From Escherichia coli (GTDB lineage Bacteria > Pseudomonadota > Gammaproteobacteria > Enterobacterales > Enterobacteriaceae), in assembly GCF_013122565.1 (NCBI RefSeq), contig NZ_CP053258.1: DNA of 64,000 nucleotides; one strand, given 5' to 3'. The notes under the pieces are model-generated. The model had not been told where the DNA came from, did no database searches, and saw only the letters and a program-made list of their open reading frames with translations. The translations under genes were made by a program, and so were the position numbers. Shown here piece by piece: positions 4,253-60,191 of this stretch (the first letter of the stretch is position 1; every line of letters starts with the position of its first letter).

Positions 4253-4349
4253 AAAAGGCCATCATACGATGGCCAACCATGTCGAAACCGACAGCCCTTC
4301 GCCATTCCTGTAGAGGGAAGCGGCGAGGGCTATTTCTTATTACAGATAT
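4253..4349 (-). ncRNA. sdhX: sucD 3'UTR-derived sRNA (SdhX/RybD-like) with intrinsic terminator
   Basis: Minus-strand region directly after the sucD stop ends in hairpin GGCCATCGTATGATGGCC followed by TTTTTT (4253-4276 on +). Position and terminator match the SdhX sRNA as I recall it; exact 5' end not determinable. Confidence 0.5.
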
Positions 4350-5219
4350 TTATTTCAGAACAGTTTTCAGTGCTTCACCGATATCCGCCAGGCTGCGAAC
4401 GGTTTTCACGCCTGCGGCTTCCAGAGCCGCGAATTTCTCATCCGCAGTCCCTTTCCCACCGGCAATGATGGCACCTGCGTGGCCCATACGTTTGCCTTTC
4501 GGCGCAGTCACACCAGCGATGTAACCTACAACTGGCTTGGTAACGTGCTCTTTGATGTACGCTGCTGCTTCTTCTTCAGCGCTACCGCCGATCTCACCGA
4601 TCATCACGATCGCTTCGGTCTGCGGATCTTTTTCGAACATTTCGAGGATGTCGATAAAGTTAGAGCCAGGGATCGGGTCACCGCCGATACCAACACAGGT
4701 CGACTGACCGAAACCGTAATCCGTGGTCTGTTTAACCGCTTCATAGGTCAGTGTACCGGAACGGGAAACGATACCCACTTTACCCGGTTTGTGAATGTGA
4801 CCAGGCTGGATACCGATTTTGCATTCACCTGGGGTGATAACGCCCGGGCAGTTCGGGCCGATCATACGAACGCCGGCTTCATCCAGTTTCACTTTCACAG
4901 TCAGCATATCCAGCGTCGGGATGCCTTCAGTGATGGTGATAATCAGTTTGATGCCTGCGTCGATGGCTTCCAGAATGGAGTCTTTGCAGAACGGTGCTGG
5001 TACGTAGATAACAGAAGCGGTAGCGCCAGTGGCAGCAACGGCTTCACGCACGGTGTTGAACACCGGCAGGCCGAGGTGGGTGGTGCCGCCTTTACCTGGG
5101 GTTACGCCGCCAACCATTTTAGTGCCGTATGCAATAGCCTGTTCTGAGTGGAAAGTCCCCTGGCTACCGGTAAAACCCTGGCAGATAACCTTGGTGTTTT
5201 TATCAATTAAAATGGACAT
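4350..5219 (-). CDS. sucD: Succinyl-CoA synthetase alpha subunit
   Basis: 289 aa, [27 protein letters not shown]..., CoA-binding and phosphohistidine motifs; start overlaps the sucC stop. Confidence 0.97.
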
Positions 5220-6385
5220 TATTTCCCCTCCACTGCGGCAACAACCTGCTGAGCTGCATCCGTCAGACCTTTTGCTGCAATAATATTCAGGCCGCTGTCA
5301 GCCAGTTTCTTCGCGCCGAGTTCGGCGTTGTTACCTTCCAGACGTACCACGACCGGTACGTTAACACCCACTTCCGCTACCGCGCCGATGATACCGTCAG
5401 CGATCAGGTCGCAACGAACGATACCGCCGAAGATGTTAACCAGAACGGCTTTCACTTTGTCGTCAGAGAGGATGATTTTGAACGCTTCGGTTACACGTTC
5501 TTTGGTTGCGCCGCCGCCAACGTCCAGGAAGTTAGCCGGTTCGCCGCCGTGCAGTTTAACGATGTCCATCGTACCCATCGCCAGACCTGCGCCGTTAACC
5601 ATACAACCGATGTTACCGTCCAGCGCAACGTAGTTCAGTTCCCACTGTGCAGCTTGTGCTTCACGTGGATCTTCCTGCGACTGGTCACGCATTTCGCGCA
5701 GATCAGGCTGGCGGAACAGTGCGTTGCCATCAGCGCCCAGTTTGCCGTCGAGGCAAATCAGATCGCCCTGTTTGGTAATGACCAGCGGGTTGATTTCGAT
5801 CAGCGCCAGGTCACGCTCCAGGAAAATGGTCGCCAGGCCCATGAAGATTTTGGTGAACTGCTGAACCAGTTTACCTTCCAGACCAAGTTTGAACGCCAGC
5901 TCGCGTCCCTGATACGGCATCGGGCCAGTCAGCGGATCAAGCGCAACTTTATGGATCAGGTGCGGAGTTTCTTCCGCCACTTTTTCGATTTCCACGCCGC
6001 CTTCGGTGGAGGCCATAAAGACCACGCGACGTGAACTACGGTCTACAACGGCACCGAGATACAGCTCTTTAGCGATATCGGTCGCCGCTTCAACCAGAAT
6101 CTGGTTAACCGGTTGGCCATTGGCATCTGTTTGATACGTTACCAGACGCTTGCCCAGCCAGTTTTCTGCAAAAGCACGGATGTCTTCTTTGCTGTTTACA
6201 ACTTTCACACCGCCCGCTTTACCGCGGCCACCAGCGTGAACCTGACATTTCACTACCCACGGACCGGCACCGATTTTTGAAGCGGCTTCTTCTGCTTCGC
6301 GCGGAGTAGTACAGGCATAACCCACCGGTGCTGGTAAGCCATAGCGGGCAAAAAGTTGTTTTGCCTGATATTCATGTAAGTTCAT
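5219..6385 (-). CDS. sucC: Succinyl-CoA synthetase beta subunit
   Basis: 388 aa, [18 protein letters not shown]..., ATP-grasp domain. Confidence 0.97.
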
Positions 6386-6469: not shown

Positions 6470-6640
6470 CGTAGGCCTGATAAGACGCGTCAGCGTCGCA
6501 TCAGGCATCGCTTGTCGGATGCGGCGCGAGCGCCTTATCCGACCTACATCGGTGCTTCCCGTAGGCCTGATAAGACGCGTTAAGCGTCGCATCAGGCTTC
6601 AATGGCCGGAGAAGGCGATAATGCCTTATCCGGTCTACAG
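6470..6640. repeat. BIME / cluster of REP palindromes in the sucB-sucC intergenic region
   Basis: Several alternating-orientation REP units (GCCTGATGCGACGCT...CTTATCAGGCCTAC type, and GCCGGATGCGGCG...CTTATCCGACCTAC). Confidence 0.85.
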
Positions 6641-10873: not shown

Positions 10874-10992
10874 GCCTGATGCGCTGCGCTTATCAGGCCT
10901 ACGGGTAATGACGTGTAGGCCGGATAAGGCGTTCACGCCGCATCCGGCACTGGTTGCCTGATAAGACGCTTGAGCGTCTTATCAGGCCTACG
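10874..10992. repeat. REP cluster in the sdhB-sucA intergenic region
   Basis: Three REP units including two copies of CTTATCAGGCCTAC (10892-10902 and 10981-10991 contain ATCAGGCCTAC). Confidence 0.85.
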
Positions 10993-26667: not shown

Positions 26668-28332
<1,665 letters not shown>

Positions 28333-28374
28333 CAGGCCAGCACCGATGCCTGATAAGACGCTCGCTGCGTTTTA

Positions 28375-29793
28375 TCAGGCTCCTTTCCTCGCTTCTTCAT
28401 ACGCTGCCAGCGTTCGCAGCCTTGCCTCTTTGTGATCAACTATCGGTTGCGGATAATCCAGCATCACACCTGCTTTCTGCGCCCACTTCCACGGCTCATG
28501 CACCGCTTTCCCTGGTACATCGCGCAGCTCCGGTAACCATCGGCGGATAAACTCACCTTCGCGATCAAATTTCTCGCCCTGGGTTGTCGGGTTAAAAATA
28601 CGAAAATACGGCGCAGCATCGGTTCCGGTGGAGGCCGCCCATTGCCAGCCACCGTTATTGGCTGCCAAATCACCATCAATCAGCTGCGACATGAAATATC
28701 GCTCGCCTTCGCGCCAGTCGATCAATAAATCTTTCACCAGAAAACTGGCTGTAATCATCCGTAGCCGGTTATGCATCCAGCCAGTGTTGTTAAGCTGACG
28801 CATGGCGGCATCGACAATCGGGTATCCGGTTTTACCTTCCTGCCAGGCCTGTAAATGGGCGGGATTGCTTTGCCATTGCACGCGGTCGGTCCAGGCAATA
28901 AACGGTCGATGTTTACACAACGAGGGGTAATACGTCATTAGATGACGGTAGAACTCGCGCCAGATCAGCTCATTAAGCCAGACACTACCGGCCCCACCGT
29001 CCAGCGCCTGAGGCTGTTCCGCCAACAGGCGATGCAAACACTGGCGAGGCGATAACCCGCCCGTTGCCAGACTGGCGGACAAACGACTGGTGCCTTCCAC
29101 TGCCGGAAAATCTCGTTGTTGCTCATACTCTCCGGCACCGTTCTGGCAAAACTGGCGTAATTGCGCAATCACCGCTTTTTCTTCCACCGGGAAATGCGCA
29201 GTATCGAAAGACTGACGAGGATAATTCAGCGTAATGGATGGCGCGGGCTCTATCGATCCGCTACTACGAACTTTTGGTGCAGTGACGCACTCCGGCATCC
29301 CTTCCCGCAGCCGTTTCAGCCAGGCATTCTTAAAAGGCGTAAAGACTTTGTACATCTCGTGATTGCCGGTCATCACCGCCCCCGGCGGCAGGATCACGCT
29401 GTCATCAAATCCTTCACACACCACGTTACGCAGCGCCCTCTCAGCCTGCACATCCCGCGCCCGCTCATTCACCTCATACTGATAGTTATAAAACAGATGG
29501 GTAATGCGATTTTCCACGCACACCTGTTTAACTGTTTCGACACTGGCAGCAAAGTCATCCACTTCACGGAACAATAAAGGAATGCCTTTTTCCGCCAGCG
29601 CTATTCGTAGCCCATTCAGTTGCGCATTGATAAATTCAGCCTGACGCGGCGACATATTATGCACTGCCCACTGGCGCGGTGTAGCGATATACAACGCCAG
29701 CACGCGTGCAGACGAATTGCGGCAGGCGGCAGCCAGCGCGAGATTATCATGCAGACGTAAATCCTGGCGAAACCAGACCAGATGGGTAGTCAT
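28375..29793 (-). CDS. phr: Deoxyribodipyrimidine photolyase
   Basis: 472 aa, MTTHLVWFRQDLRLHDNLALAAACRN...; FAD-binding C-terminal domain. Confidence 0.95.
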   Translation of the reverse strand: MTTHLVWFRQDLRLHDNLALAAACRNSSARVLALYIATPRQWAVHNMSPRQAEFINAQLNGLRIALAEKGIPLLFREVDDFAASVETVKQVCVENRITHLFYNYQYEVNERARDVQAERALRNVVCEGFDDSVILPPGAVMTGNHEMYKVFTPFKNAWLKRLREGMPECVTAPKVRSSGSIEPAPSITLNYPRQSFDTAHFPVEEKAVIAQLRQFCQNGAGEYEQQRDFPAVEGTSRLSASLATGGLSPRQCLHRLLAEQPQALDGGAGSVWLNELIWREFYRHLMTYYPSLCKHRPFIAWTDRVQWQSNPAHLQAWQEGKTGYPIVDAAMRQLNNTGWMHNRLRMITASFLVKDLLIDWREGERYFMSQLIDGDLAANNGGWQWAASTGTDAAPYFRIFNPTTQGEKFDREGEFIRRWLPELRDVPGKAVHEPWKWAQKAGVMLDYPQPIVDHKEARLRTLAAYEEARKGA

Positions 29794-30299
29794 AAAGCTC
29801 CTGCATGGCGCAAGTTAATCACACGCGGCCAAAGTTCGAAATAACGCTGCCCTGAAAGCCAGGCGTCAGGATAAAGCGCCATATAGTGTTTGATACGCAT
29901 CAGCGGCGCAAGAAGCGGTTGCTCGCCACGGCGATAACTGTCGATAAGCGCAGCCAGCTGCTGGCGTTCTGTGGAATCAATATGTGGGCGAAAATAACCC
30001 TGAACGTGCATCAAAACGTTGGTGTGATCGCGCGTGTTGGCGGGGTGAGAAAGTAAAACGATTACACGTTGGCGGTACTGGTTGTAATAGTCATCCAGAT
30101 TTTGCCACCGATGAATATCAGCCACAAACGGGCCAAGTTTGCGGTATTCCGGCTGGTAATGCGCCAGAAAGACGAGTTTATAGCGGCTGTGATAATCGTT
30201 GAACGCCCCACGCGTTAGCCCATGTTCTTTCAGTCGATGTAACTCATGAAGGGCGAAGATACGGATTAGGGTGCTTTCATCAAATCGTTGCTGATTCAT
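29790..30299 (-). CDS. ybgA: DUF1722-family protein cotranscribed with photolyase
   Basis: Start trimmed to MNQQRFDESTLIRIFALHELHRLKEHG (169 aa); stop overlaps the phr start. Confidence 0.85.
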   Translation of the reverse strand: MNQQRFDESTLIRIFALHELHRLKEHGLTRGAFNDYHSRYKLVFLAHYQPEYRKLGPFVADIHRWQNLDDYYNQYRQRVIVLLSHPANTRDHTNVLMHVQGYFRPHIDSTERQQLAALIDSYRRGEQPLLAPLMRIKHYMALYPDAWLSGQRYFELWPRVINLRHAGAL

Positions 30300-30400
30300 T
30301 ACTGCTCCTGAACGGTTTACAGGAGTAAGTGTAGACGGCGAAAAGAAAAAAACCGCCAGCGTTTCCACTAGCGGTTTTCAATGTATTCAAAACTCAGCAA

Positions 30401-30607
30401 TCAGTAAAAATCACCGGTTGCCTTTTCGGCCTGATCCATCCAAACCGGTTTATCGCTGGTTTTCGACCAGACGCGATGCAGGTAGCTGTAAAAGCGGGCG
30501 CGGTCTTTCCAGAAAAGCATGAAAGGCAGCGCCAGAACGCCCGCTGCAACCGCATAAGTACGGCGTAAAAAGATAAGCCATGCAGGATATTCTCTGTAGA
30601 GTTCCAT
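30401..30607 (-). CDS. ybfA: Small DUF2517-family protein
   Basis: 68 aa, [68 protein letters not shown]. Confidence 0.8.
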
Positions 30608-30816
30608 ACTTTTCTCCCCCTTTTGTATCTACCCGGTGAATAGCACCGGAAAAATGAATTTGTTTATCTGATGAAAATAGTACCGCCTTTTGTGTAATTT
30701 TACTACTCATCCGACCACTTATTTTTGCTTATTGATGGTTTATTTACATTCATCCTGTAATTAAGTTACACAAAAGTTAAATTAATACTAAACGTTAGTT
30801 AAATCATGGCTTTTGC

Positions 30817-30842
30817 CATTTTTATACTTTTTTTACACCCCG
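30817..30842 (+). promoter_or_regulatory. KdpE-binding site / kdpFABC promoter region
   Basis: CATTTTTATACTTTTTTTACACCCCG upstream of kdpF matches the T-rich KdpE operator as I recall it. Confidence 0.5.
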
Positions 30843-30919
30843 TCCGCAGATTTTTGCGAAATCTTTGCAGCCAGAATTCTACCCTTCCGGTATCACTTTT
30901 AGGCCACTGGAGGTGCACT

Positions 30920-31009
30920 GTGAGTGCAGGCGTGATAACCGGCGTATTGCTGGTGTTTTTATTACTGGGTTATCTGGTTTATGCCCTGATCAATGCGGAG
31001 GCGTTCTGA
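30920..31009 (+). CDS. kdpF: K+-transporting ATPase small subunit F
   Basis: GTG-initiated 29-aa hydrophobic peptide [29 protein letters not shown] with GGAGG upstream; stop overlaps the kdpA ATG (TGATG). Confidence 0.85.
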
Positions 31010-32682
31010 TGGCTGCGCAAGGGTTCTTACTGATCGCCACGTTTTTACTGGTGTTAATGGTGCTGGCGCGCCCTTTAGGCAGCGGGCTGGCGCGGCTGAT
31101 TAATGACATACCTCTTCCCGGTACAGCGGGCGTTGAACGTATACTCTTTCGTTTACCTGGCGTCTCTGACAGTGAGATGAACTGGAAGCAGTATCTCTGT
31201 GCCATTCTCGGCCTGAACATGCTGGGGCTGGCGGTGCTGTTTTTCATGCTGCTCGGTCAGCACTATCTACCGCTTAATCCACAGCAGTTGCTGGGGCTGT
31301 CGTGGGATCTGGCGCTGAATACCGCCGTCAGCTTTGTCACGAATACCAACTGGCAATCTTATAGCGGTGAAACCACGTTGAGCTATTTCAGCCAGATGGC
31401 GGGCTTAACGGTGCAAAACTTTCTTTCTGCCGCCAGCGGGATTGCGGTGATTTTTGCCTTCATCCGTGCATTTACCCGCCAGAGCATGAGCACACTCGGG
31501 AATGCCTGGGTCGATCTGCTACGCATCACGTTATGGGTGCTAGTCCCTGTGGCGTTGTTGATCGCACTGTTTTTTATTCAACAAGGTGCACTGCAAAACT
31601 TTCAGCCTTATCAGGCGGTGAATACCGTTGAAGGAGCGCAACAGCTGTTACCAATGGGTCCGGTGGCTTCTCAGGAAGCGATCAAGATGCTCGGCACTAA
31701 CGGCGGTGGTTTCTTTAATGCCAACTCGTCGCATCCGTTTGAAAACCCAACCGCACTGACCAACTTCGTGCAGATGCTGGCGATCTTCTTGATCCCAACA
31801 GCGCTGTGCTTTGCCTTTGGTGAAGTGACGGGCGATCGCCGTCAGGGGCGCATGTTGCTGTGGGCGATGTCGGTGATTTTTGTCATCTGCGTAGGCGTGG
31901 TGATGTGGGCAGAAGTTCAGGGTAATCCTCATCTGCTGGCGCTGGGTGCGGACAGCAGCATCAATATGGAAGGTAAAGAGAGCCGTTTCGGCGTGCTGGT
32001 CAGTAGCCTGTTTGCGGTCGTGACTACAGCGGCATCCTGTGGCGCGGTGATTGCGATGCATGATTCGTTTACCGCTCTCGGTGGCATGGTGCCGATGTGG
32101 CTGATGCAAATTGGTGAAGTGGTATTCGGCGGTGTCGGTTCTGGTCTTTACGGCATGATGCTGTTTGTCCTGCTGGCGGTGTTTATTGCCGGGCTGATGA
32201 TTGGTCGTACACCGGAATATCTGGGTAAAAAAATCGACGTACGTGAGATGAAACTGACTGCACTGGCGATTCTGGTCACCCCGACGCTGGTGCTGATGGG
32301 CGCGGCGCTGGCAATGATGACCGACGCCGGACGTAGCGCCATGCTCAACCCTGGCCCGCATGGTTTTAGCGAAGTGCTGTACGCCGTGTCATCCGCCGCT
32401 AACAACAACGGCAGCGCCTTTGCCGGATTAAGCGCCAACTCTCCGTTCTGGAACTGTTTACTGGCGTTCTGCATGTTTGTCGGTCGCTTCGGGGTGATTA
32501 TCCCGGTGATGGCAATTGCCGGTTCGCTGGTGAGTAAAAAGAGCCAACCCGCCAGCTCCGGCACGCTGCCAACGCACGGCCCGCTGTTTGTTGGCCTGTT
32601 AATCGGCACCGTGTTGCTGGTTGGCGCACTGACCTTTATCCCTGCCCTGGCGCTTGGTCCGGTGGTGGAATATCTCTCCTGA
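31009..32682 (+). CDS. kdpA: K+-transporting ATPase subunit A
   Basis: Start trimmed to [38 protein letters not shown] (557 aa). Confidence 0.97.
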
Positions 32683-32704
32683 TGATATTGAGTGAGCACT
32701 GAAT

Positions 32705-34753
32705 ATGAGTCGTAAACAACTGGCGCTATTCGAACCAACACTTGTCGTTCAGGCGCTGAAAGAAGCGGTGAAAAAATTAAACCCGCAGGCGCAATGGCGC
32801 AATCCGGTGATGTTTATCGTCTGGATCGGCAGTCTGCTGACCACCTGTATTAGCATCGCGATGGCAAGCGGCGCGATGCCTGGCAATGCGCTGTTTAGCG
32901 CGGCAATTAGCGGCTGGCTGTGGGTCACCGTACTGTTCGCTAATTTCGCCGAGGCGCTGGCAGAAGGCCGCAGTAAAGCGCAGGCCAATAGTCTGAAAGG
33001 GGTGAAAAAAACTGCCTTTGCCCGCAAGCTGCGTGAGCCGAAATATGGCGCTGCGGCGGACAAAGTTCCTGCCGATCAACTGCGTAAAGGCGATATCGTA
33101 CTGGTAGAAGCTGGCGATATTATCCCCTGCGATGGTGAAGTTATTGAAGGGGGCGCATCGGTCGATGAAAGCGCCATCACCGGGGAATCGGCACCGGTTA
33201 TCCGTGAATCCGGCGGCGATTTTGCCTCCGTCACTGGCGGCACGCGTATTCTTTCTGACTGGCTGGTAATTGAGTGCAGCGTTAATCCCGGCGAGACATT
33301 TCTGGATCGGATGATCGCGATGGTGGAAGGCGCACAGCGACGCAAAACGCCGAACGAGATTGCCCTGACCATTCTCCTGATTGCCCTGACTATCGTCTTT
33401 TTACTGGCAACCGCCACGCTGTGGCCGTTTTCCGCGTGGGGCGGTAATGCAGTCAGCGTAACGGTACTGGTGGCGCTGCTGGTCTGTCTGATCCCAACCA
33501 CTATTGGCGGCCTGTTGTCAGCGATCGGCGTCGCCGGGATGAGTCGGATGCTGGGCGCGAATGTGATTGCCACCAGCGGACGTGCAGTTGAAGCGGCGGG
33601 TGACGTTGACGTCCTGCTGCTGGATAAAACCGGCACCATCACACTCGGTAACCGTCAGGCGTCGGAGTTTATCCCTGCGCAGGGCGTGGATGAAAAAACG
33701 CTGGCTAATGCCGCACAACTGGCTTCGCTGGCTGATGAAACGCCGGAAGGCCGCAGTATTGTGATCCTCGCCAAGCAGCGTTTTAATCTGCGCGAGCGCG
33801 ATGTGCAGTCGCTTCACGCCACCTTTGTACCGTTTACTGCGCAAAGCCGGATGAGCGGGATCAACATCGACAACCGCATGATCCGTAAAGGTTCTGTCGA
33901 TGCCATTCGCCGCCATGTTGAGGCTAACGGTGGTCACTTCCCTGCCGATGTTGATCAAAAAGTCGATCAGGTTGCGCGTCAGGGAGCCACGCCGCTGGTG
34001 GTGGTGGAAGGTTCTCGTGTGCTGGGCGTTATTGCGCTGAAAGATATCGTCAAAGGCGGTATTAAAGAGCGCTTCGCCCAGCTGCGTAAAATGGGCATTA
34101 AAACGGTGATGATTACCGGCGATAACCGTCTGACTGCCGCCGCCATTGCTGCGGAAGCGGGCGTCGATGATTTCCTCGCTGAAGCGACACCGGAGGCCAA
34201 GCTGGCATTGATTCGTCAGTATCAGGCGGAAGGCCGTTTGGTGGCGATGACCGGCGACGGCACCAACGATGCTCCGGCGCTGGCGCAGGCAGATGTCGCG
34301 GTGGCGATGAACTCTGGTACTCAGGCGGCGAAAGAAGCGGGCAATATGGTGGATCTCGACTCTAACCCGACCAAGTTGATCGAGGTGGTACATATTGGCA
34401 AACAGATGCTGATGACCCGTGGCTCGCTGACCACCTTCAGCATTGCCAACGATGTGGCGAAATACTTCGCCATTATTCCGGCGGCGTTCGCGGCAACGTA
34501 TCCGCAGTTAAATGCGCTGAACATCATGCGCCTGCATTCGCCCGACTCCGCCATTCTCAGTGCGGTCATTTTCAACGCCTTGATTATCGTCTTTTTGATT
34601 CCCCTGGCGTTAAAAGGCGTGAGTTATAAACCGCTTACCGCTTCTGCCATGTTGCGCCGTAACTTATGGATTTACGGTCTGGGTGGGCTGCTGGTGCCGT
34701 TTATTGGTATCAAAGTCATTGATTTACTGCTGACCGTTTGCGGTCTGGTGTGA
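32705..34753 (+). CDS. kdpB: K+-transporting P-type ATPase subunit B
   Basis: 682 aa with P-type ATPase motifs DKTGTIT and [11 protein letters not shown]. Confidence 0.97.
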
Positions 34754-38011: not shown

Positions 38012-38685
38012 CAAACGTTCTGATTGTTGAAGATGAACAGGCTATTCGTCGCTTTCTGCGCACGGCGCTGGAGGGCGACGGTATGCGCGTCTTTGAGGCC
38101 GAAACGCTGCAACGCGGCTTGCTGGAAGCGGCAACCCGTAAGCCAGATTTGATTATTCTCGATCTCGGCCTGCCCGACGGTGATGGGATTGAGTTTATCC
38201 GCGACCTGCGCCAGTGGAGCGCGGTGCCGGTGATTGTGCTTTCCGCACGCAGCGAAGAGAGCGACAAAATCGCCGCGCTGGATGCCGGAGCGGATGATTA
38301 TCTGAGTAAGCCGTTTGGCATTGGCGAATTGCAGGCCCGTCTGCGCGTCGCATTACGCCGCCACTCTGCCACCACCGCGCCCGATCCGCTGGTGAAATTT
38401 TCCGATGTTACCGTCGATTTAGCCGCCCGCGTGATCCATCGCGGTGAGGAAGAGGTGCATCTCACCCCGATTGAGTTTCGCCTGCTGGCAGTGCTGCTCA
38501 ACAACGCCGGAAAAGTACTCACCCAGCGCCAGTTACTCAATCAGGTGTGGGGGCCAAACGCGGTCGAACACAGTCACTATTTGCGTATTTATATGGGACA
38601 TCTGCGACAAAAACTGGAACAGGATCCCACTCGCCCCCGCCATTTCATTACTGAAACCGGTATTGGGTATCGGTTTATGCTTTGA
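38008..38685 (+). CDS. kdpE: Response regulator KdpE (OmpR family)
   Basis: 225 aa; receiver domain (ILDLGLPDGDG) and winged-helix output; 4-bp overlap with kdpD. Confidence 0.97.
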   Translation: MTNVLIVEDEQAIRRFLRTALEGDGMRVFEAETLQRGLLEAATRKPDLIILDLGLPDGDGIEFIRDLRQWSAVPVIVLSARSEESDKIAALDAGADDYLSKPFGIGELQARLRVALRRHSATTAPDPLVKFSDVTVDLAARVIHRGEEEVHLTPIEFRLLAVLLNNAGKVLTQRQLLNQVWGPNAVEHSHYLRIYMGHLRQKLEQDPTRPRHFITETGIGYRFML

Positions 38686-38808
38686 AAAAAGTGGCAATGT
38701 ATGGATAAAGTCATTTTTTATTCAAATATAAGGAACTTAATATTTAAAAAATGTTCCATACAATTCCTCATCATAAATGACACCGTAGCACACAAGGAGC
38801 AAGTAGCG

Positions 38809-43941: not shown

Positions 43942-44472
43942 ATGGCTATCACTGGCATCTTTTTCGGCAGCGACACCGGTAATACCGAAAATATCGCAAA
44001 AATGATTCAAAAACAGCTTGGTAAAGACGTTGCCGATGTCCATGACATTGCAAAAAGCAGCAAAGAAGATCTGGAAGCTTATGACATTCTGCTGCTGGGC
44101 ATCCCAACCTGGTATTACGGCGAAGCGCAGTGTGACTGGGATGACTTCTTCCCGACTCTCGAAGAGATTGATTTCAACGGCAAACTGGTTGCGCTGTTTG
44201 GTTGTGGTGACCAGGAAGATTACGCCGAATATTTCTGCGACGCATTGGGCACCATCCGCGACATCATTGAACCGCGCGGTGCAACCATCGTTGGTCACTG
44301 GCCAACTGCGGGCTATCATTTCGAAGCATCAAAAGGTCTGGCTGATGACGACCACTTTGTCGGTCTGGCTATCGACGAAGACCGTCAGCCGGAACTGACC
44401 GCTGAACGTGTAGAAAAATGGGTTAAACAGATTTCTGAAGAGTTGCATCTCGACGAAATTCTCAATGCCTGA
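43942..44472 (+). CDS. fldA: Flavodoxin 1
   Basis: Start trimmed to [27 protein letters not shown] (176 aa), FMN-binding signature. Confidence 0.97.
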
Positions 44473-44672
44473 TGTGATGCGGCGTAGACTCATGTCTACG
44501 CCGTATTAATAGATAATGCCAATCAAAATAATTGCTACAAATTTGTAACTTTTGCTGTTGTACCTGTACAATGTCCCGGTGTTCAAGTGGCCTTGCCGTT
44601 GTAAATGTAAGCTGTGCCACGTTTTTATTAACAATATTTGCCAGGGACTTGTGGTTTTCATTTAGGCGTGGC

Positions 44673-44691
44673 AATTCTATAATGATACGCA
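44673..44691 (+). promoter_or_regulatory. Fur box at the uof/fur promoter
   Basis: TATAATGATACGCATTATC closely matches the 19-bp Fur consensus GATAATGATAATCATTATC and overlaps the uof start codon. Confidence 0.6.
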
Positions 44692-44768
44692 TTATCTCAA
44701 GAGCAAATTCTGTCACTTCTTCTAATGAAGTGAACCGCTTAGTAACAGGACAGATTCCGCATGACTGA
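44682..44768 (+). CDS. uof: Upstream ORF of fur (leader peptide)
   Basis: 28-aa ORF MIRIISRANSVTSSNEVNRLVTGQIPHD whose stop (44766-44768) overlaps the fur ATG at 44761. Confidence 0.7.
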   Translation: MIRIISRANSVTSSNEVNRLVTGQIPHD

Positions 44769-45207
44769 TAACAATACCGCCCTAAAGAAAGCTGGCCTGA
44801 AAGTAACGCTTCCTCGTTTAAAAATCCTGGAAGTTCTTCAGGAGCCGGACAACCATCACGTCAGTGCGGAAGATTTATACAAACGTCTGATCGATATGGG
44901 TGAAGAAATTGGTCTGGCTACGGTATATCGCGTACTGAACCAGTTTGACGATGCTGGTATCGTCACCCGCCACAATTTTGAAGGCGGTAAATCCGTATTT
45001 GAACTGACACAGCAACATCACCACGATCACCTGATCTGCCTCGACTGCGGCAAGGTTATCGAATTTAGTGATGATTCCATCGAAGCGCGTCAGCGTGAAA
45101 TTGCCGCAAAACATGGCATTCGCCTGACTAACCACAGTCTCTATCTTTACGGTCACTGTGCCGAAGGCGATTGCCGCGAAGATGAGCACGCGCACGAAGG
45201 CAAATAA
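44761..45207 (+). CDS. fur: Ferric uptake regulator
   Basis: 148 aa, MTDNNTALKKAGLKVTLPRLKILEVLQEPDNHHVSAEDLYKRLIDMGEEIGLATVYRVLNQF... Confidence 0.98.
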   Translation: MTDNNTALKKAGLKVTLPRLKILEVLQEPDNHHVSAEDLYKRLIDMGEEIGLATVYRVLNQFDDAGIVTRHNFEGGKSVFELTQQHHHDHLICLDCGKVIEFSDDSIEARQREIAAKHGIRLTNHSLYLYGHCAEGDCREDEHAHEGK

Positions 45208-45291
45208 GCCAGCCTGAATGAGAAAAAGCCAACCTGCAGGTTGGCTTTTTTATGCAAGGAAAATAAGAAAAGCGAGAGTTACAGCTCTCTC

Positions 45292-45618
45292 TTATTTGTT
45301 ATTACTGCGAATTTCCTGCCAAACTTTATCACAATCGGCTTTCACCGCCTGATCATTTCCGGTTTGCGTTGCACGCAGACACTGCTGATAATCCAGTACG
45401 CGTACACTTTCCTGGTCGGCAAACTGCTGATGTTGTTTCTCTTTCTTCAGCACGTTTAACACGCTCTGGCAGGCTTCAATTTTTTCCGGCGAACCTTGCG
45501 CGGTGTTGATACAGGCGCTGTATGCCTCTTTCAGACGGCTGTCTTCCTGTGGCGCGGTTGATTGCGCACAAGCCACCAGCCCCGATGCCATCATGGCGAT
45601 GAGAATCAGTTTTTTCAT
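45292..45618 (-). CDS. chiQ: Chitosugar-induced lipoprotein
   Basis: 108 aa, signal peptide with lipobox (LVAC). Confidence 0.85.
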   Translation of the reverse strand: MKKLILIAMMASGLVACAQSTAPQEDSRLKEAYSACINTAQGSPEKIEACQSVLNVLKKEKQHQQFADQESVRVLDYQQCLRATQTGNDQAVKADCDKVWQEIRSNNK

Positions 45619-45667
45619 AGCGAATTCCTCAAATGTGCGGCAGGCACAAAACCTGCCGCGTCGGGCA

Positions 45668-47074
45668 TCAGAAGATGGTGAATGGTGCGATTACCATAAA
45701 TTTCACGTCACGCTCATCCTGGAAGATGTTACCGTAACCGCCGCCCCAGCTTGGGATGTCAGAGTGGTTGTCGTATTCGGTGAAATGCAGTTTGAACATC
45801 GTGCCTTTGGCGCGGCCGTCCTGAATGGTGTAGACCGCATCCAGGCTGTATGCAGACTCTTCAATAGTCCGGTTTTTGTCGTAGTACGCATCCGGATTGC
45901 TCTGCCAGGTCGCAGGTTTTGCATCCCATGCGTAAACGTAGGAAGCGCCGATGGCGAAGCCTGGAAGATTCCAGTTTTTCAGGTCATACATCGCACCGAA
46001 GAAGACCGCTTTTTCGCCGTTGGCGTTGAAGTCAGAACGGTTATCCCACCAGATATCCAGGCGACCATTCGAGGAAGCGTAGGTTGGGGTCATACGTTGC
46101 AGGAAGTATCCCTGCTGACCGTCAGCCTTAACCCAGGTGCCTTCGAGGCGCAAATCCACTACGTCAGCCGCCCGGTAACCAAAGGTCAACGCTTGCAGCC
46201 AGGCGGTGCCGTCATAAAGATCGTTGACGCTGCGATCGTCAACTTTATCGCGCGTACCATAGAACTGATAGCTGGTGGTTAACGGGCTACCGGCGATATC
46301 AAATTTGTAGCTGGCTTTGGCAAAATATTGATCGATATACCCTTCCGCCTGACCAAACGCCGCTTCCAGTACGAAGTTATTTTTGAAGTCGTATTTCGCC
46401 CCAAGGGAGTGCAGATAATCAACTTTGGTGGTTTTATCGTTCTGATAAAACTCATCCATTTCCAGGTGCCACGGCGCTTTGTATTCGTTGGTCCACATGT
46501 AGGAGAAACTCAAGGCACCAGCATCGCCGTAATCAAAATTCGCTCCGGCTTCCGCACCCTGATAAGTACCTGGCATAAAGCTCCAGTGCGGCGCTAACAG
46601 CGTCTGACCGGTTGGCTGAATATAACCTGCCCTCGCCCAAACCGGACCGTATTTAAATTTGGCCGCAGCTTTATACAGGCTTATACCGCTTTTGTCGCCG
46701 GACCAGTCTTCGTCATAGGCTTTATTACTTTTTGAAAACGCGATTTCGTTCGGGTGAGAGCTGTCGCCGTTTTCCGCCATTTCAATCGCCGTAAACGCAG
46801 CAATATCAAGGCCGAACATATCAGCAGCATAACCGGACTGAAAATCGAGGTTGGCATTCCAGGTGGAGTGAGAAAGGTTGGTTTTGTATTTGTCGCCGTC
46901 GGTAACATCTTTACGGTCGCGTTCACGCTGCCAGTAATAGATACCGCCGGTTAAGGTTGAATCGTCGATGAATCCTTCGGCGCGAGCCTCCGGCATTGCC
47001 ATAAAGCCCGACATTGCTGTAACACCGGCGATAGCCAGCGCCAGCGTACTACGTTTGCCACTAAACGTACGCAT
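45668..47074 (-). CDS. chiP: Chitoporin (OprD-family outer-membrane porin)
   Basis: 468 aa, signal peptide, beta-barrel with C-terminal aromatic residue. Confidence 0.9.
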
Positions 47075-47521
47075 GGGTTAATCCTCTTTGACGTATAAAT
47101 TGCTGCACCAAAGGTGAACAGCGAAAAAATAAAAATTAAAAAAGTAGCGTTGAGAAAAGTCTCGCTGACTACAGGAACAGACTATTTTTCGCGACGCGAA
47201 TTATCAATCTCTTTCTGTAACCAGAATGTAAGAACATGAGCAACCGCACATATTTTGATGATTTTTGTTACAAGGCTTAAGTTTGCGGTTGAAAGGCTTG
47301 CAGAAGAATAAAAGCGTGAAATTCCAGCAAGATGAAAGCGGTTACATTTTATTTAATTATGTTTTGTGATTTTAAATTTATTTTATGGATAAATTGCGAA
47401 GCGGAATTAATTCGCGAAGAAAAGCAGAAAAAAACGCCGCAGAGCGCGGCGTTTGGGATTGTTTGCATATTTCTTGCCGGATGTGGCGTAAATGCCTCAC
47501 CCGGCCTGGTAGAACTTAAAA

Positions 47522-49186
47522 TTACTCGCCTACTTTCGCCCAGGTATCACGCAGCCCAACGGTGCGGTTAAATACCGGTTTTTCCGCCGTAGAATGGCGG
47601 CTGTCGAGGCAGAAGTAACCTTCACGCTCAAACTGGAATGCTTTACCCGCTACCGCGTCTTTCAGCGACGGTTCAGCAAAGCCCTGTTTGATCACCAGCG
47701 ATTCCGGGTTAATCACCGACAGGAAATCATCCGCAGCGCCTGGGTTAGGCACGCTGAACAGACGATCATACAAACGGATTTCAACCGGCAGCGCATGTGC
47801 CGCGCTCACCCAGTGAATAACGCCTTTCACTTTACGACCATCTGCCGGATCTTTGCTTAAGGTATCGGCGTCATAAGTACAGAAGATGGTGGTGATATTA
47901 CCTTCGGCATCTTTCTCGACGCGTTCTGCCTTAATCACGTAAGCATTACGCAGACGCACTTCTTTACCCAGCACCAGACGTTTGTACTGCTTGTTAGCTT
48001 CTTCGCGGAAATCGGCGCGATCGATCCAAATTTCACCGCTAAACGGCACCTGACGGCTCCCCATTTCCGGTTTGTTCGGATGGTTCGGCATGGTGACCAT
48101 TTCGCCTTCGCCCTGATAGTTTTCGATAACCAGTTTCACCGGATCGATAACCGCCATTGCGCGCGGCGCATTTTCGTTGAGATCTTCACGGATGCAGGAT
48201 TCCAGCGACGCCATCTCAATGGTGTTGTCCTGCTTGGTCACGCCAATGCGTTTGCAGAACTCACGAATAGAAGCCGCAGTGTAACCACGACGACGCAGAC
48301 CAGAAATGGTCGGCATACGCGGGTCATCCCAGCCTTCAACGTGCTTGTCGGTCACCAGCAGGTTCAGCTTACGCTTGGACATCACAGTGTATTCCAGATT
48401 CAGGCGCGAGAATTCGTACTGGCGCGGGTGAACAGGAATGGTGATGTTGTCCAGCACCCAGTCGTACAGGCGACGGTTGTCCTGGAATTCAAGCGTACAC
48501 AATGAGTGCGTAATACCTTCCAGCGCATCGCTGATGCAGTGGGTGAAGTCGTACATCGGGTAGATGCACCACTTGTTGCCAGTCTGGTGGTGTTCAGCAA
48601 ATTTAATGCGGTACAGCACCGGATCGCGCATTACGATAAATGGCGACGCCATGTCGATTTTCGCACGCAGGCAGGCTTTACCTTCTTCAAAACCACCGGC
48701 ACGCATTTTTTCGAACAGCGCCAGGTTCTCTTCAACGCTGCGGTCGCGGTACGGGCTGTTTTTACCCGGCTGCGTCAGGGTGCCGCGGTATTCGCGGATC
48801 TGTTCCGGTGTCAGTTCATCAACATACGCCAGGCCTTTATTGATCAGTTCGATCGCATAGGCGTGGAGCTGATCAAAATAATCGGAGGAGTAACGGACGT
48901 TACCAGACCAGTGAAAACCTAACCACTCTACGTCGTTTTTGATCGAATCGACATACTCGATATCTTCTTTTACCGGGTTAGTGTCGTCGAAACGCAGGTT
49001 GCACTGGCCTTTATAGTCCTGGGCGATCCCGAAGTTCAGGCAGATAGATTTCGCATGCCCAATATGCAGATAGCCATTCGGCTCCGGCGGGAAACGGGTG
49101 TGTACTGTGGTGTGCTTACCACTGGCCAGATCTTCATCGATGATCTGACGGATAAAGTTAGTCGGGCGGGCTTCTGCCTCACTCAT
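47522..49186 (-). CDS. glnS: Glutaminyl-tRNA synthetase
   Basis: 554 aa, [24 protein letters not shown]..., HIGH motif ([14 protein letters not shown]) and MSK motif. Confidence 0.98.
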
Positions 49187-49388
49187 CGTGGATTCCTCAA
49201 AGCGTAAACAACGTATAACGGCGTATGATCTTATAAGCGGGACAGGCTGACAACTGTTAGTTAGTGAAAATCGAAAATCTCACTGAGATTATGGGGATGA
49301 TTGATGAAAAAAAAAGCGGCAGAGAAGATCTCCACCGCTTGTCATTGTTGGATGCGACGCTCAAGCGTCGCATCAGGCATAAAGCAGA

Positions 49389-51335
49389 TTACTTTTTGAT
49401 TTCATACAGCGGTGTTTGACCCGCCACAACATGGCCCTGAGCTTTAATGATCAAACCACTGAAATCGTCGATATTGCTGCAAACCACCGGACTAATCATC
49501 GAGCTGGCGTTAGCGTTCAGGTAATCCAGATCCATTTCCAGAATCGGTTGCCCTGCGCTTACCTGCGCGCCCTCTTCCACCAGACGTTTAAAGCCTTTAC
49601 CTTCCAGCGCTACGGTGTCGATACCCATATGGACGACGATCTCCGCGCCTTTTTCGGTTTCCAGGCAGAACGCGTGGTTGGTGTTGAAGATTTTCACGAT
49701 TGTTCCTGCGGCTGGTGATACGACGATTTTATCTGTCGGTTTTACCGCCACACCGTCACCCACCGCTTTGCTGGCGAATGCTTCGTCAGGAACCTGATCC
49801 AGTGCCACAACATCACCGGTAATCGGCGATACCAGCTCCGCGACAGACACCGCGTTTGGTACAGCCTGCGGTTTTGCTACAGGAGCGGCAGTTGCCGGAG
49901 TTGCTTCAGCTGACGCAGCTGCTACCGGGCCACGGGCAACGACTTTCTTCATCGCATCGCCGATGGATTCTGCTTTCGCGCCAACAATCACCTGAATAGT
50001 CTGTTTGTTCAGTTTTACTACCCCAGAAGCCCCCAGACGTTTACACATCGTATCGTTAACGCGGGCAGAGTCAGCCACGGTAAGGCGCAGACGAGTGATA
50101 CAGGCGTCAATCGCTTTCAGGTTGTCAGTGCCGCCAACCGCAGCAATATAGTTGGTTGCCAGTTGATTGAGGCCTTCTTCAGTGTTGCTGTTGGCTTCTT
50201 CAGTAACGATCTCGTCTTCTTTATCTTCACGACCCGGCGTTTTCAGGTTGAACATGCGGATAACCAAACTGAACACCACGAAGTAGATAGCGAAGAAGAC
50301 AACACCCATAACCAGCAGCATCCAGACGTTCTGGCTGGCGGCCGGCAGGTTATACATCAACGCGTAGTCGATAGCCCCCGCAGAGAAAGAGAAGCCGGCA
50401 TGGATACCCAGCAGCGTTGCCACAAACAGGCTGATACCGGTCAGCAGTGCGTGCAGGAGGTACAGCAGCGGTGCAAGGAACATGAACAGGAATTCCAGCG
50501 GCTCAGTCACACCGGTCAGGAACGCAGTAACAGCAACAGAAAGCAGCATCCCGCCAACCATCGGACGACGCTCTTTCGGTGCTGCGAAGTACATCGCCAG
50601 CGCCGCACCCGGCAGACCGAACATCATGATCGGGAAGAAGCCGGACATGAACATCCCCGCGGTGCCGTCACCAGCGTAGAAACGGTTGATGTCGCCGTGG
50701 AAAACCGTACCCGCCGCGTTGGTGAATTCACCAATCTGGAACCAGGCGATGGTGTTCAGCACCTGATGCAGACCGGTTGGGATCAGCAGACGGTTGATGA
50801 AACCAAAGATACCGGAACCCAGCGCGTCCGCAGAAACGATCCACTCGCCGCCTGCATGGATAGCGTGCTGTACCGGCGGCCAGACGTAACCAAAAATGGC
50901 CGCCAGCACCAGACAGAAGAAGCCGGTGGCGATCGGCACAAAGCGTTTGCCGCCGAAGAAGCTCAGGAAGTCCGGCAGTTTAATATCGGACCAACGGTTA
51001 TAGGCTGCGCCACCAACCAGACCGGTAATGATACCCGCCAGTACACCCATGTTTATTTCTGGGTTGATGGTCACCATCGCTTTGGTTAACACAAAGTAAC
51101 CTACCGCACCCGCCAGCGCCGCCGCACCAGCGCTGTCTTTCGACCAGCTGGATGCCACACCGATGGCGAAGATTAATGCGAGGTTATCAAAAATCGCACC
51201 GCCCGCCTGGGCAATAAACGCAACGTTAAGTAAATCTGGCTGACCGAATCGCAGCAACAGCGCCGCCACCGGCAGCACCGCGATAGGGAGCTGTAACGCC
51301 CTACCGAGTCGCTGGAAAAAACCTAAAATATTCAT
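49389..51335 (-). CDS. nagE: PTS N-acetylglucosamine-specific EIICBA component
   Basis: 648 aa; EIIC membrane domain, EIIB cysteine region, EIIA C-terminal domain. Confidence 0.97.
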   Translation of the reverse strand: MNILGFFQRLGRALQLPIAVLPVAALLLRFGQPDLLNVAFIAQAGGAIFDNLALIFAIGVASSWSKDSAGAAALAGAVGYFVLTKAMVTINPEINMGVLAGIITGLVGGAAYNRWSDIKLPDFLSFFGGKRFVPIATGFFCLVLAAIFGYVWPPVQHAIHAGGEWIVSADALGSGIFGFINRLLIPTGLHQVLNTIAWFQIGEFTNAAGTVFHGDINRFYAGDGTAGMFMSGFFPIMMFGLPGAALAMYFAAPKERRPMVGGMLLSVAVTAFLTGVTEPLEFLFMFLAPLLYLLHALLTGISLFVATLLGIHAGFSFSAGAIDYALMYNLPAASQNVWMLLVMGVVFFAIYFVVFSLVIRMFNLKTPGREDKEDEIVTEEANSNTEEGLNQLATNYIAAVGGTDNLKAIDACITRLRLTVADSARVNDTMCKRLGASGVVKLNKQTIQVIVGAKAESIGDAMKKVVARGPVAAASAEATPATAAPVAKPQAVPNAVSVAELVSPITGDVVALDQVPDEAFASKAVGDGVAVKPTDKIVVSPAAGTIVKIFNTNHAFCLETEKGAEIVVHMGIDTVALEGKGFKRLVEEGAQVSAGQPILEMDLDYLNANASSMISPVVCSNIDDFSGLIIKAQGHVVAGQTPLYEIKK

Positions 51336-51456
51336 CTTATTCCCCCTACGAGAACCCTAATTGGCTCGTTTAAAGCCGTATTTTTATTTTGCTGCAAATT
51401 GTACTGCCGATGTTCTGTAATCAGATTGTTAGATCATCTGCTACAGAGTGTGTGAA

Positions 51457-51575
51457 AATTTAATTCGTATCGCAAATTAAACGCGTGTCTTTTGTGAGTT
51501 TTGTCACCAAATATCGTTATCATCACTCCCTTTTACTGGCTAAACCAGAAAACTTATTTTATCATTCAAAAAATC
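51457..51575. promoter_or_regulatory. nagE-nagBACD divergent control region: two NagC operators flanking a CRP site
   Basis: Palindromic TTAATTCGTATCGCAAATTAA (about 51461-51482); CRP-like TGTGAGTTTTGTCACC (51493-51508); CTTATTTTATCATTCAAAAAATC (about 51553-51575). Matches the loop-forming architecture as I recall it. Confidence 0.6.
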
Positions 51576-51667
51576 AGGTCGGATTGACGCCTGTCTGCGC
51601 AAATCCAGGTTACGCTTAAAGATGCCTAATCCGCCAACGGCTTACATTTTACTTATTGAGGTGAATA

Positions 51668-53676
<2,009 letters not shown>

Positions 53677-53684
53677 GAGAAAGT

Positions 53685-54905
53685 ATGACACCAGGCGGAC
53701 AAGCTCAGATAGGTAATGTTGATCTCGTAAAACAGCTTAACAGCGCGGCGGTTTATCGCCTGATTGACCAGTACGGGCCAATCTCGCGGATTCAGATTGC
53801 CGAGCAAAGCCAGCTTGCCCCCGCCAGCGTAACCAAAATTACGCGTCAGCTTATCGAACGCGGGCTGATCAAAGAAGTTGATCAGCAGGCCTCCACTGGG
53901 GGCCGCCGCGCTATCTCCATCGTCACCGAAACCCGCAATTTCCACGCAATCGGTGTACGGCTTGGTCGTCACGACGCCACCATCACCCTGTTTGATCTCA
54001 GCAGCAAAGTGCTGGCAGAAGAACATTACCCGCTGCCGGAACGTACCCAGCAAACGCTGGAACATGCCCTGTTGAATGCCATTGCTCAGTTTATTGATAG
54101 CTACCAGCGCAAACTGCGCGAGCTGATCGCGATTTCGGTGATCCTGCCAGGGCTTGTTGACCCGGACAGCGGCAAAATTCATTACATGCCGCATATTCAG
54201 GTAGAAAACTGGGGGCTGGTAGAAGCACTGGAAGAACGTTTTAAAGTGACCTGTTTCGTCGGTCACGATATCCGTAGTCTGGCGCTGGCAGAGCACTACT
54301 TCGGTGCAAGTCAGGATTGCGAAGACTCCATTCTGGTGCGTGTCCATCGCGGAACCGGGGCCGGGATTATCTCTAACGGGCGCATTTTTATTGGCCGCAA
54401 CGGCAACGTCGGTGAAATTGGCCATATTCAGGTCGAACCGCTGGGTGAACGCTGCCACTGCGGCAACTTTGGCTGCCTGGAAACTATCGCCGCCAACGCT
54501 GCCATTGAACAACGGGTGTTGAATCTGTTAAAGCAGGGCTACCAGAGCCGCGTGCCGCTGGACGACTGCACCATCAAAACTATCTGTAAAGCCGCGAACA
54601 AAGGCGATAGCCTGGCGTCGGAAGTGATTGAGTATGTCGGTCGTCATCTGGGCAAAACCATCGCCATTGCTATCAACTTATTTAATCCGCAAAAAATTGT
54701 TATTGCCGGTGAAATCACCGAAGCCGATAAAGTGCTGCTCCCTGCTATTGAAAGCTGCATTAATACCCAGGCGCTGAAGGCGTTTCGTACTAATCTGCCG
54801 GTGGTACGTTCTGAGCTGGATCACCGCTCGGCAATCGGCGCTTTTGCGCTGGTAAAACGCGCCATGCTCAACGGTATTTTGCTCCAGCATTTGCTGGAAA
54901 ATTAA
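53685..54905 (+). CDS. nagC: N-acetylglucosamine repressor (ROK family)
   Basis: 406 aa, N-terminal HTH plus ROK sugar-kinase-like domain with CxCGxxGC zinc motif. Confidence 0.97.
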   Translation: MTPGGQAQIGNVDLVKQLNSAAVYRLIDQYGPISRIQIAEQSQLAPASVTKITRQLIERGLIKEVDQQASTGGRRAISIVTETRNFHAIGVRLGRHDATITLFDLSSKVLAEEHYPLPERTQQTLEHALLNAIAQFIDSYQRKLRELIAISVILPGLVDPDSGKIHYMPHIQVENWGLVEALEERFKVTCFVGHDIRSLALAEHYFGASQDCEDSILVRVHRGTGAGIISNGRIFIGRNGNVGEIGHIQVEPLGERCHCGNFGCLETIAANAAIEQRVLNLLKQGYQSRVPLDDCTIKTICKAANKGDSLASEVIEYVGRHLGKTIAIAINLFNPQKIVIAGEITEADKVLLPAIESCINTQALKAFRTNLPVVRSELDHRSAIGAFALVKRAMLNGILLQHLLEN

Positions 54906-54952
54906 TGTGCTTTTATAGTGGCGCTTATTGTTGTCAATATTCTGGGTAGTCC

Positions 54953-55705
54953 ATGACCATTAAAAATGTAATTTGCGATATCGACGGCGTGCTGATGCAC
55001 GATAACGTCGCCGTACCGGGTGCAGCGGAATTTTTGCACGGGATTATGGATAAAGGCCTGCCGCTGGTGTTGCTGACCAACTATCCTTCGCAGACCGGGC
55101 AAGATCTGGCGAACCGCTTTGCCACTGCCGGTGTCGATGTACCTGACAGCGTGTTTTATACCTCTGCGATGGCGACCGCCGATTTCCTGCGTCGCCAGGA
55201 AGGCAAGAAAGCGTATGTGGTGGGCGAAGGCGCACTGATTCATGAACTGTACAAAGCCGGTTTCACTATTACCGATGTGAACCCTGATTTTGTGATTGTT
55301 GGCGAAACGCGTTCCTACAACTGGGACATGATGCATAAAGCGGCCTATTTCGTCGCTAATGGTGCACGCTTTATCGCCACCAACCCGGATACCCACGGGC
55401 GCGGTTTTTATCCGGCCTGTGGCGCGTTGTGTGCAGGGATTGAGAAAATCTCCGGGCGCAAACCGTTCTATGTTGGTAAGCCGAGTCCGTGGATTATCCG
55501 CGCGGCATTAAACAAAATGCAGGCACATTCGGAAGAAACGGTGATTGTCGGCGATAACCTGCGTACCGATATTCTGGCCGGCTTCCAGGCAGGTCTGGAG
55601 ACGATTCTGGTGCTTTCTGGTGTTTCGTCGCTCGACGATATCGACAGTATGCCTTTCCGCCCCAGCTGGATTTACCCGTCGGTCGCTGAAATCGACGTTA
55701 TCTGA
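54953..55705 (+). CDS. nagD: HAD-family UMP phosphatase (NagD/UmpH)
   Basis: 250 aa, DIDGVL HAD motif I. Confidence 0.95.
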   Translation: MTIKNVICDIDGVLMHDNVAVPGAAEFLHGIMDKGLPLVLLTNYPSQTGQDLANRFATAGVDVPDSVFYTSAMATADFLRRQEGKKAYVVGEGALIHELYKAGFTITDVNPDFVIVGETRSYNWDMMHKAAYFVANGARFIATNPDTHGRGFYPACGALCAGIEKISGRKPFYVGKPSPWIIRAALNKMQAHSEETVIVGDNLRTDILAGFQAGLETILVLSGVSSLDDIDSMPFRPSWIYPSVAEIDVI

Positions 55706-55756
55706 ATAGCAACCACGTCTGCGGACGTGGTTGATACTGATGACAAATGCCAAACT

Positions 55757-55854
55757 GCCTGATGCGCTACGCTTATCAGGCCTACGCAGCTCCTGCAATA
55801 TATTGAATTTTCATGCTTTTGTAGGCCGGATAAGGCGTTCACGCCGCATCCGGC
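55757..55854. repeat. REP pair (BIME) between nagD and asnB
   Basis: GCCTGATGCGCTACGCTTATCAGGCCTAC and inverted GTAGGCCGGATAAGGCGTTCACGCCGCATCCGGC. Confidence 0.85.
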
Positions 55855-56101
55855 ATGAACAAATCGCACTTTGTCAGTAATTTGGCCCCCGTAAAATATA
55901 ACCATTCAATAAAACCCGCTAAAAATTATCGATTCATCAATAAATACATCCTTACACCAGACCTTTTTTCACCAATCGACAATCACCATTACGTTTTTTA
56001 TTTTTTCACCGCCAAATCGCTTGCGCACAGTGCTGCTTTGCGGCATTTTTTTAAACAAGCAAACACAACAAGCAACAAATACCAGGTTAACGGAGAAGGT
56101 T

Positions 56102-57766: not shown

Positions 57767-58075
57767 GAAATGCGGTATTGCCCCGGAGAAATCCGGGGCA
57801 ATTTCAGTTACTGGGGCGCTTGTTGATTCTGATATGCAGTGAGGAAATGTTCCGGATTTGCTACATCGCTGTTTGGCAACTCATCACTGTAGGCCAGTAT
57901 TTCATAGATTAATTTCCCACCACTATTGTTGAATTCCGAATTTCATCCTGTACGACAAAAGAATGGCTAGGGTGGGGAAAAAACACAAAGTAAACAATAA
58001 TTGACGAATATAGCGCCACGCTGTTCGCAACCTAACCAAACAGTCACTTTCGAGCAATTTTCCTTGAAAAAGAGG

Positions 58076-58774: not shown

Positions 58775-58849
58775 TGGGGTATCGCCAAGCGGTAAGGCAC
58801 CGGATTCTGATTCCGGCATTCCGAGGTTCGAATCCTCGTACCCCAGCCA
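58775..58849 (+). tRNA. glnX: tRNA-Gln (anticodon CTG), duplicate
   Basis: Identical to the glnV sequence. Confidence 0.95.

Positions 58850-58967: not shown

Positions 58968-60191
<1,224 letters not shown>

Follow-up and report, generated by a model that had tools for sequence, protein, structure and literature searches.

The presence or absence of Rhs elements has reportedly long been known to vary among Escherichia coli strains from the work of Hill and colleagues. The site considered here, kdpA..phr, was catalogued as Rhs 'position 5' by Jackson et al. 2009 (PMC2935791), who inferred that the E. coli ancestor was already equipped with an rhs gene there, and it was tabulated as b0699-b0706 in the E. 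coli W genome paper (PMC3032704). In K-12 MG1655 (NC_000913.3) the site holds the RhsC element (b0700-b0706), and the annotated gene order is ybfA, rhsC, ybfB, ybfO (pseudogene), ybfC, ybfQ, ybfL (pseudogene), ybfD and ybgA. This annotation agrees with the original prediction, which had RhsC and associated ybf genes between ybfA and ybgA in K-12.

Here, the corresponding site was analysed in a 64-kb stretch of E. coli DNA (the window). The chromosomal site and both flanks (ybfA/kdp and ybgA/phr) are the same as in K-12, whereas rhsC, the tips, the H-repeat copies and the island ends are all absent, so that the window is the empty counterpart of the RhsC locus. We put at roughly 0.9 the probability that 30300-30400 represents an unoccupied allele of the site that holds RhsC in K-12, and that the lineage obtained this form, vertically or through homologous recombination, from an allele that was never interrupted rather than through deletion in place. 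Variation of this kind at the Rhs site is a common and already described strain difference, and the ybfA-ybgA finding matters little on its own. The gains are modest: a base-level insertion point for RhsC, support for the empty form as the ancestral enterobacterial architecture, and signs that different cargo, of toxin or immunity type, has entered the site more than once.

The ybfA-ybgA gap and the RhsC insertion point

ybfA and ybgA had been placed directly next to each other, about 100 bp apart, and the measured gap (30300-30400) is 101 bp. The flanks are colinear with K-12, with kdpFABC on one side and phr-dtpD on the other. phr is the downstream partner of ybgA, and its start overlaps the ybgA stop. 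The features of the region are given below.

28375..29793, minus strand: phr, deoxyribodipyrimidine photolyase (ORF list; tblastn with K-12 Phr, 94.9% identity)
29790..30299, minus strand: ybgA (DUF1722), 169 aa (94.1% to K-12 YbgA; Pfam PF08349, E = 1e-33)
30305..30309, minus strand: ybgA Shine-Dalgarno AGGAG, 5 nt upstream of the ATG (read from the sequence)
30326..30336, minus strand: GTCTACACTTA block, conserved in Escherichia, Citrobacter and Trabulsiella (alignments)
30337..30345, minus strand: 9-nt spacer, CTTTTCGCC on the minus strand (BLAST break points 30337 / 30347 and junction sequences)
30346..30379, minus strand: putative intrinsic (Rho-independent type) terminator of ybfA (terminator scan, folding, conservation)
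30401..30607, minus strand: ybfA (DUF2517), 68 aa (100% to K-12 YbfA; PF10725, E = 3e-34)
30920..31009, plus strand: kdpF, first gene of the divergent kdpFABC operon and conserved left flank (sequence; colinear with K-12 kdpF/kdpA)

Read along the minus strand, the ybfA stop is followed by 21 nt, the hairpin, the T-run, CTTTTCGCC (30345..30337), GTCTACACTTA (30336..30326) and a leader with AGGAG (30309..30305), before the ATG at 30299. The GGAG of this Shine-Dalgarno sequence is invariant in 11 of 11 sequences from three genera. An Rfam search of 28000-32000 at a permissive threshold returned no match in the 30300-30400 gap, and a repeat search of 30200-30700 turned up nothing beyond the terminator arms and a few short matches attributable to chance. 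No part of the 101-bp gap is left unassigned, with no island-end sequence, Rhs core, tip, immunity gene or H-repeat between ybfA and ybgA, and the annotation of the region in this genome is simply ybfA, terminator and ybgA-phr.

Within the ybgA leader, a CTCCTG...CAGGAG inverted repeat at 30305-30324 (minus strand) overlaps the Shine-Dalgarno sequence in Escherichia, and a different hairpin, TTATCCG...CGGATAA, occupies this position in Citrobacter. A conserved secondary structure in the leader was considered and dropped after RNAalifold gave zero consensus pairs.

Comparison with K-12 was used to locate the insertion point. By BLAST, window positions 30347-33000 match the ybfA/kdp side of K-12 (97.6%) and positions 28382-30337 match the ybgA/phr side (93.8%). 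Between these two blocks K-12 has 9,568 bp (the island is 49.6% G+C, against 51.9% for the window), and the window has 9 bases (30337-30345). Alignment with K-12 thus also disposes of the one circumstance named as fatal to the original prediction, namely that K-12 ybfA might itself lie directly beside ybgA. Because the matches break at 30337 and 30347, the insertion point, which had been placed to within about 100 bp, can be narrowed to about 9 bases (30337-30346). With a slash marking each junction, the K-12 left junction reads GGCGGTTTTTT/GTATCAGGAAG..., a K-12-type left junction that can also be written GGCGGTTTTTT/GTATCAGG, and the right junction reads ...ATCATTTCTCAAC/GTCTACACTTACTCC; the window junction is GGCGGTTTTTTT-CTTTTCGCC-GTCTACACTTACTCC. 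No target-site duplication or flanking repeats were found at the K-12 island ends, and the sole string common to the surroundings of both ends is TATCA. On these alignments, the insertion point is the 9-nt spacer that separates the T-run of the ybfA terminator from the GTCTACAC block, and the target was not duplicated. In K-12-type genomes, 9.6 kb of DNA entered and replaced this spacer, comprising rhsC with the immunity-like ybfB, ybfO (an orphan Rhs tip) with ybfC, and H-repeat/ISAs1 transposase genes in three copies.

Remnants of an Rhs core or tip elsewhere were also looked for within the 64-kb window, which is the portion of the genome covered, and none were seen. Neither tblastn with RhsC, YbfB, YbfC and YbfD nor a nucleotide search with the island gave a match in these 64 kb, and an Rhs polymorphic toxin locus (YD/RHS-repeat ORF, RHS core, variable tip and immunity gene) is absent from the window.

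The left border of the spacer is formed by a stem-loop. A terminator scan identified it on the minus strand at 30379..30348, with 14 pairs, of which 6 are G-C, and a 4-nt loop; it begins 21 nt past the ybfA stop. The T-run consists of seven T (30352..30346), the first five of which close the predicted 14-pair stem. The hairpin reads CCGCTAGTG-GAAA-CGCTGGCGG on the minus strand, and the whole of 30379..30348 is spelled GAAAACCGCTAGTG-GAAA-CGCTGGCGGTTTTT. RNA folding gave -22.8 kcal/mol, compared with -12.85 +/- 2.66 for dinucleotide shuffles (z = -3.7), and 1 of 200 shuffles folds as well. Thirteen pairs persist across 11 aligned sequences from Escherichia, Citrobacter and Trabulsiella, and one inner pair is compensatory (AU in 6 and GC in 5 of the sequences). 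The stem-loop is thus directly followed by a T-run, lies downstream of a stop codon and is conserved in relatives; together the hairpin and T-run are most likely the intrinsic terminator of ybfA. The terminator-like hairpin and minus-strand T-run of the original prediction are therefore borne out by scan, folding and conservation, but the palindrome quoted for them, CCGCCAGCG...CGCTGGCGG, is the K-12 version and not that of the window. The 5' arm of the window, CCGCTAGTG, differs from the K-12 form by two transitions, with pairing kept as G·U, and CCGCCAGCG on the plus strand of the window (30353-30361) is the reverse complement of the same hairpin arm, CGCTGGCGG.

On the other side of the spacer, GTCTACACTTA is the first stretch in common with K-12 on the ybgA side. 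The block is almost invariant in three genera although Citrobacter ybgA is only ~65% identical. It holds a -10-like TACACT (30333..30328; 4 of 6 against the consensus), and a consensus promoter scan called no sigma-70 site at the block. TACACT is a plausible -10 element of a candidate ybgA-phr promoter.

Site states in E. coli and related genera

The frequency of the empty site was assessed by searching a 1-kb probe across the window junction against 5,424 complete E. coli genomes. The contiguous arrangement is present in 1,310 of the 5,424 (24%), and the probe is split into two places in most others. Conversely, a 100-nt probe centred on the K-12 left junction was found nearly full-length in 3,484 complete genomes, and a K-12 right-junction probe in 3,140. 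Some strains carry a variant right end, such as the E. albertii-like one of strain 08-00022. The empty site is annotated as ybfA followed by ybgA in PE164, LR-62-2 and clone D i14, the last a CFT073-like strain that we take to belong to the B2 phylogroup. At these three empty junctions the gene order, terminator and ybgA leader are as in the window, and the spacer is the same or one base shorter; identity to the window over 1 kb is only 93-97.4%.

Site states were also surveyed by looking up contigs that encode the exact YbfA of the window. These include full K-12-like islands, islands broken by IS elements and a clean empty site (L025), as well as a deletion remnant (L028) with a truncated rhsC, roughly 2.8 kb long, in which both K-12-type island ends are kept. 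Rhs proteins at the ybfA-ybgA site (L022-L029) carry PF05593, PF03527 and PF20148. One contig (L030; GCA_026649565.1, 8262-10470) has an unrelated, AT-rich insert of 2.2 kb (28-47% G+C) in the ybfA-ybgA gap. Its junctions, TTTTTTTAT/.../GTACCGCC-GTCTACAC, have ends that differ from those of the K-12 island, and an ORF in the insert shows weak, sub-threshold similarity to SUKH/SMI1 immunity-type proteins.

To place the empty form outside E. coli, GTDB species representatives were scanned with the window YbgA, which returned 14 loci. In six Citrobacter species and Trabulsiella odontotermitis, kdpA-ybfA-ybgA-phr is contiguous, with a terminator, a T-run, a 9-10 nt spacer and the GTCTACACTTA block. 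This arrangement is like that of the window (contiguous genes, hairpin and T-run, spacer of 9-10 nt and a [GT][TA]CTACACTTA block), whereas the hairpin loop and inner stem differ, and the ybgA product of Citrobacter is longer at its N-terminus and only about 65% identical to that of the window. The site is also empty in SCPM-O-B-8794 and E69 (L007 and L008), two divergent Escherichia lineages that carry the label E. coli and are about 90-94% identical to the window. The block consensus in empty sites is GT[CT]TA[CA]ACTTA. The SCPM-O-B-8794 spacer, ATGTACGCC, resembles Citrobacter spacers such as ATGCACGGAC (L012), and that of E69, GTTTTCGCC, is close to that of the window, although 9 nt is little sequence on which to base homology across genera. 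Because Citrobacter, Trabulsiella and the two Escherichia lineages share the terminator, the short spacer and GTCTACACTTA, these comparisons support the empty form as the ancestral architecture for this part of the Enterobacteriaceae, with the window junction being of that type.

In contrast to these empty sites, ybgA is immediately preceded by foreign DNA, or by the end of the contig, in E. albertii, E. whittamii, Escherichia sp. E1V33 and Escherichia sp. MOD1-EC7003. The comparison in these lineages concerns the right end, their contigs ending inside the inserted DNA. All four have in common with K-12 the last ~20 nt before GTCTACAC, CACAAAT.TCATTT.C.A.C. The cargo in E. whittamii (L010, 1-8981) is a type VI secretion set consisting of a DUF4123 adaptor, PAAR, a VgrG C-terminal fragment, a muramidase and a full-length ISAs1/H-repeat transposase, and that in E1V33 is an Rhs tip with an IS200-type transposase. 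The cargo of E. whittamii and the unrelated 2.2-kb insert described above occupy one and the same place, the stretch of at most 10 nt that separates the ybfA terminator from GTCTACAC, where the window carries nothing. That several species have this island end in common suggests a single old insertion, the interior of which would since have turned over. Because this right end is common to four other Escherichia lineages, the insertion is probably older than E. coli itself, in agreement with Jackson et al. 2009 (PMC2935791).

The phrase 'unoccupied ancestral state' used in the original prediction can thus be retained for the architecture, which is contiguous in Citrobacter and Trabulsiella. For the lineage's own line of descent it is unproven, the insertion apparently being older than E. 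coli.

Origin of the empty allele

The history of the site has to be read against the divergence of the window itself. Across 5,426 complete E. coli genomes, the highest identities to the window are 97.0% (18001-43000), 98.4% (44001-58000) and 97.5% (1-6000). Among GTDB species representatives there is no exact match to the window YbgA, the best having 93% protein identity, and the window is much further from other Escherichia species than from E. coli. By these identities, the window is from a divergent E. coli-like lineage. The ybgA-phr flank (28382-30337) has 93.8% identity with K-12; with E. albertii it has 92.1%, placing that species no further away than other E. coli. The adjacent stretch at 19.9-28.4 kb is 96% identical to K-12 and 83% to E. 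albertii, and ybgA-phr is far more diverse than its neighbours. This suggests that the ybgA-phr segment has been exchanged across species boundaries. When flank haplotypes were compared, genomes did not cluster by occupancy, and PE164 (empty) is nearest to K-12 (occupied). A mosaic flank together with mixed occupancy would fit frequent recombination across the site.

The strain may descend from an occupied ancestor, because the shared right end spans species and because Jackson et al. 2009 (PMC2935791) inferred an ancestral rhs gene at this position. If the ancestors were indeed occupied, the empty allele could have been regained secondarily, through homologous recombination of the kdp and ybgA-phr flanks with an empty-site donor. 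Such a return would be compatible with an allele of ancestral type and incompatible with unbroken vertical descent. It draws on the occupied state with its shared right end, which spans several Escherichia species and is inferred to be older than E. coli, on the mosaic and unusually diverse ybgA-phr flank, as frequent recombination would give, and on the intermixing of empty and occupied genomes by flank similarity. However, no recombination tract was delimited, and the two divergent Escherichia lineages (L007 and L008) and the B2-type strains are also empty, so the empty allele may have persisted throughout. We regard this route as possible but rather doubtful.

Loss of an island that was once present in this lineage, by excision or deletion leaving a clean junction, is a much weaker proposal. 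Partial island deletions do occur, as the roughly 2.8-kb remnant with a truncated rhsC (L028) illustrates, but a deletion of that type keeps both island ends and the window has neither. K-12 has no flanking direct repeat, and recombination between the TATCA copies would give TTTTTTGTATCATTTCTCAACGTCTAC, whereas the window has TTTTTTTCTTTTCGCCGTCTAC. The 9-nt spacer of the window is moreover absent from K-12, and it resembles the spacers of other empty Escherichia sites and, via L007, those of Citrobacter. Deletion in place is disfavoured because remnants of the L028 type keep the island ends and because the 9-nt spacer could not be recreated, and we consider it very improbable. Less credible still is an assembly artefact in which an Rhs or IS repeat was collapsed or skipped and ybfA wrongly joined to ybgA. 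Draft contigs of E. albertii, MOD1-EC7003 and E1V33 do end 123-2,152 bp upstream of ybgA, but closed PE164 has the same spacer and junction (two differing bases in a 141-bp alignment), as do over a thousand other complete genomes.

An unoccupied allele derived from an uninterrupted one, by descent or by homologous recombination, is therefore our preferred reading of the window. A wider proposal, to which we assign even odds, is that this stretch of at most 10 nt has long been a hot spot for insertion, where empty and occupied alleles would have coexisted, or been exchanged across species, since before the E. albertii / E. coli split. This proposal fits the right end shared by four non-coli Escherichia lineages and K-12, the scarless empty sites in the window, in B2-type strains and in two divergent Escherichia lineages, and the presence of at least one unrelated insert (L030) in the same gap. 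If it is true, the window, whose lineage falls outside the E. coli diversity that has been sampled, would add another independent case of the empty allele.

Other features of the window

Several other differences from K-12 were observed in the window. At 38542-38700, the K-12 speFL-speF-potE block (about 4.2 kb, NC_000913.3 716865-721054) is absent, making this a second 'empty site'. The 3' end of kdpE (145 nt, 38542-38686) matches both K-12 kdpE and the K-12 ybfI pseudogene, and the speFL-speF-potE block of K-12 is therefore bracketed by a direct repeat of the kdpE end. Beside sucD, positions 1-4242 hold genes for an RtcB-family protein, a LysR-type regulator and a class I fumarate hydratase (as annotated elsewhere), where K-12 has mngR-mngA-mngB; positions 1-6000 of the window are at least 80% covered in only 26 of 5,425 complete E. 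coli genomes.

Relative to K-12, a 1,277-bp insertion is present at 58971-60247, between the last tRNA-Gln (58775-58849) of the metT-leuW-glnUW-metU-glnVX cluster and ubiF (60282-61463, minus strand). It encodes a 326-aa IS110-family transposase (59162-60142, plus strand; Pfam DEDD_Tnp_IS110 and Transposase_20). In size and protein the insertion may resemble IS621, the 'bridge RNA' element.

REP-type repeats were detected at 6474-6544 (minus strand), 10918-10988 (plus), 28313-28381 (plus) and 55778-55820 (minus), corresponding to Rfam naRNA4 (two above threshold and one below) and ES036. The sub-threshold naRNA4 match is the REP-like repeat at 28313-28381, in the dtpD-phr interval, a point at which alignments to other genomes are interrupted. 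REP-type repeats are probably the reason why each genome gave dozens of additional short BLAST matches.
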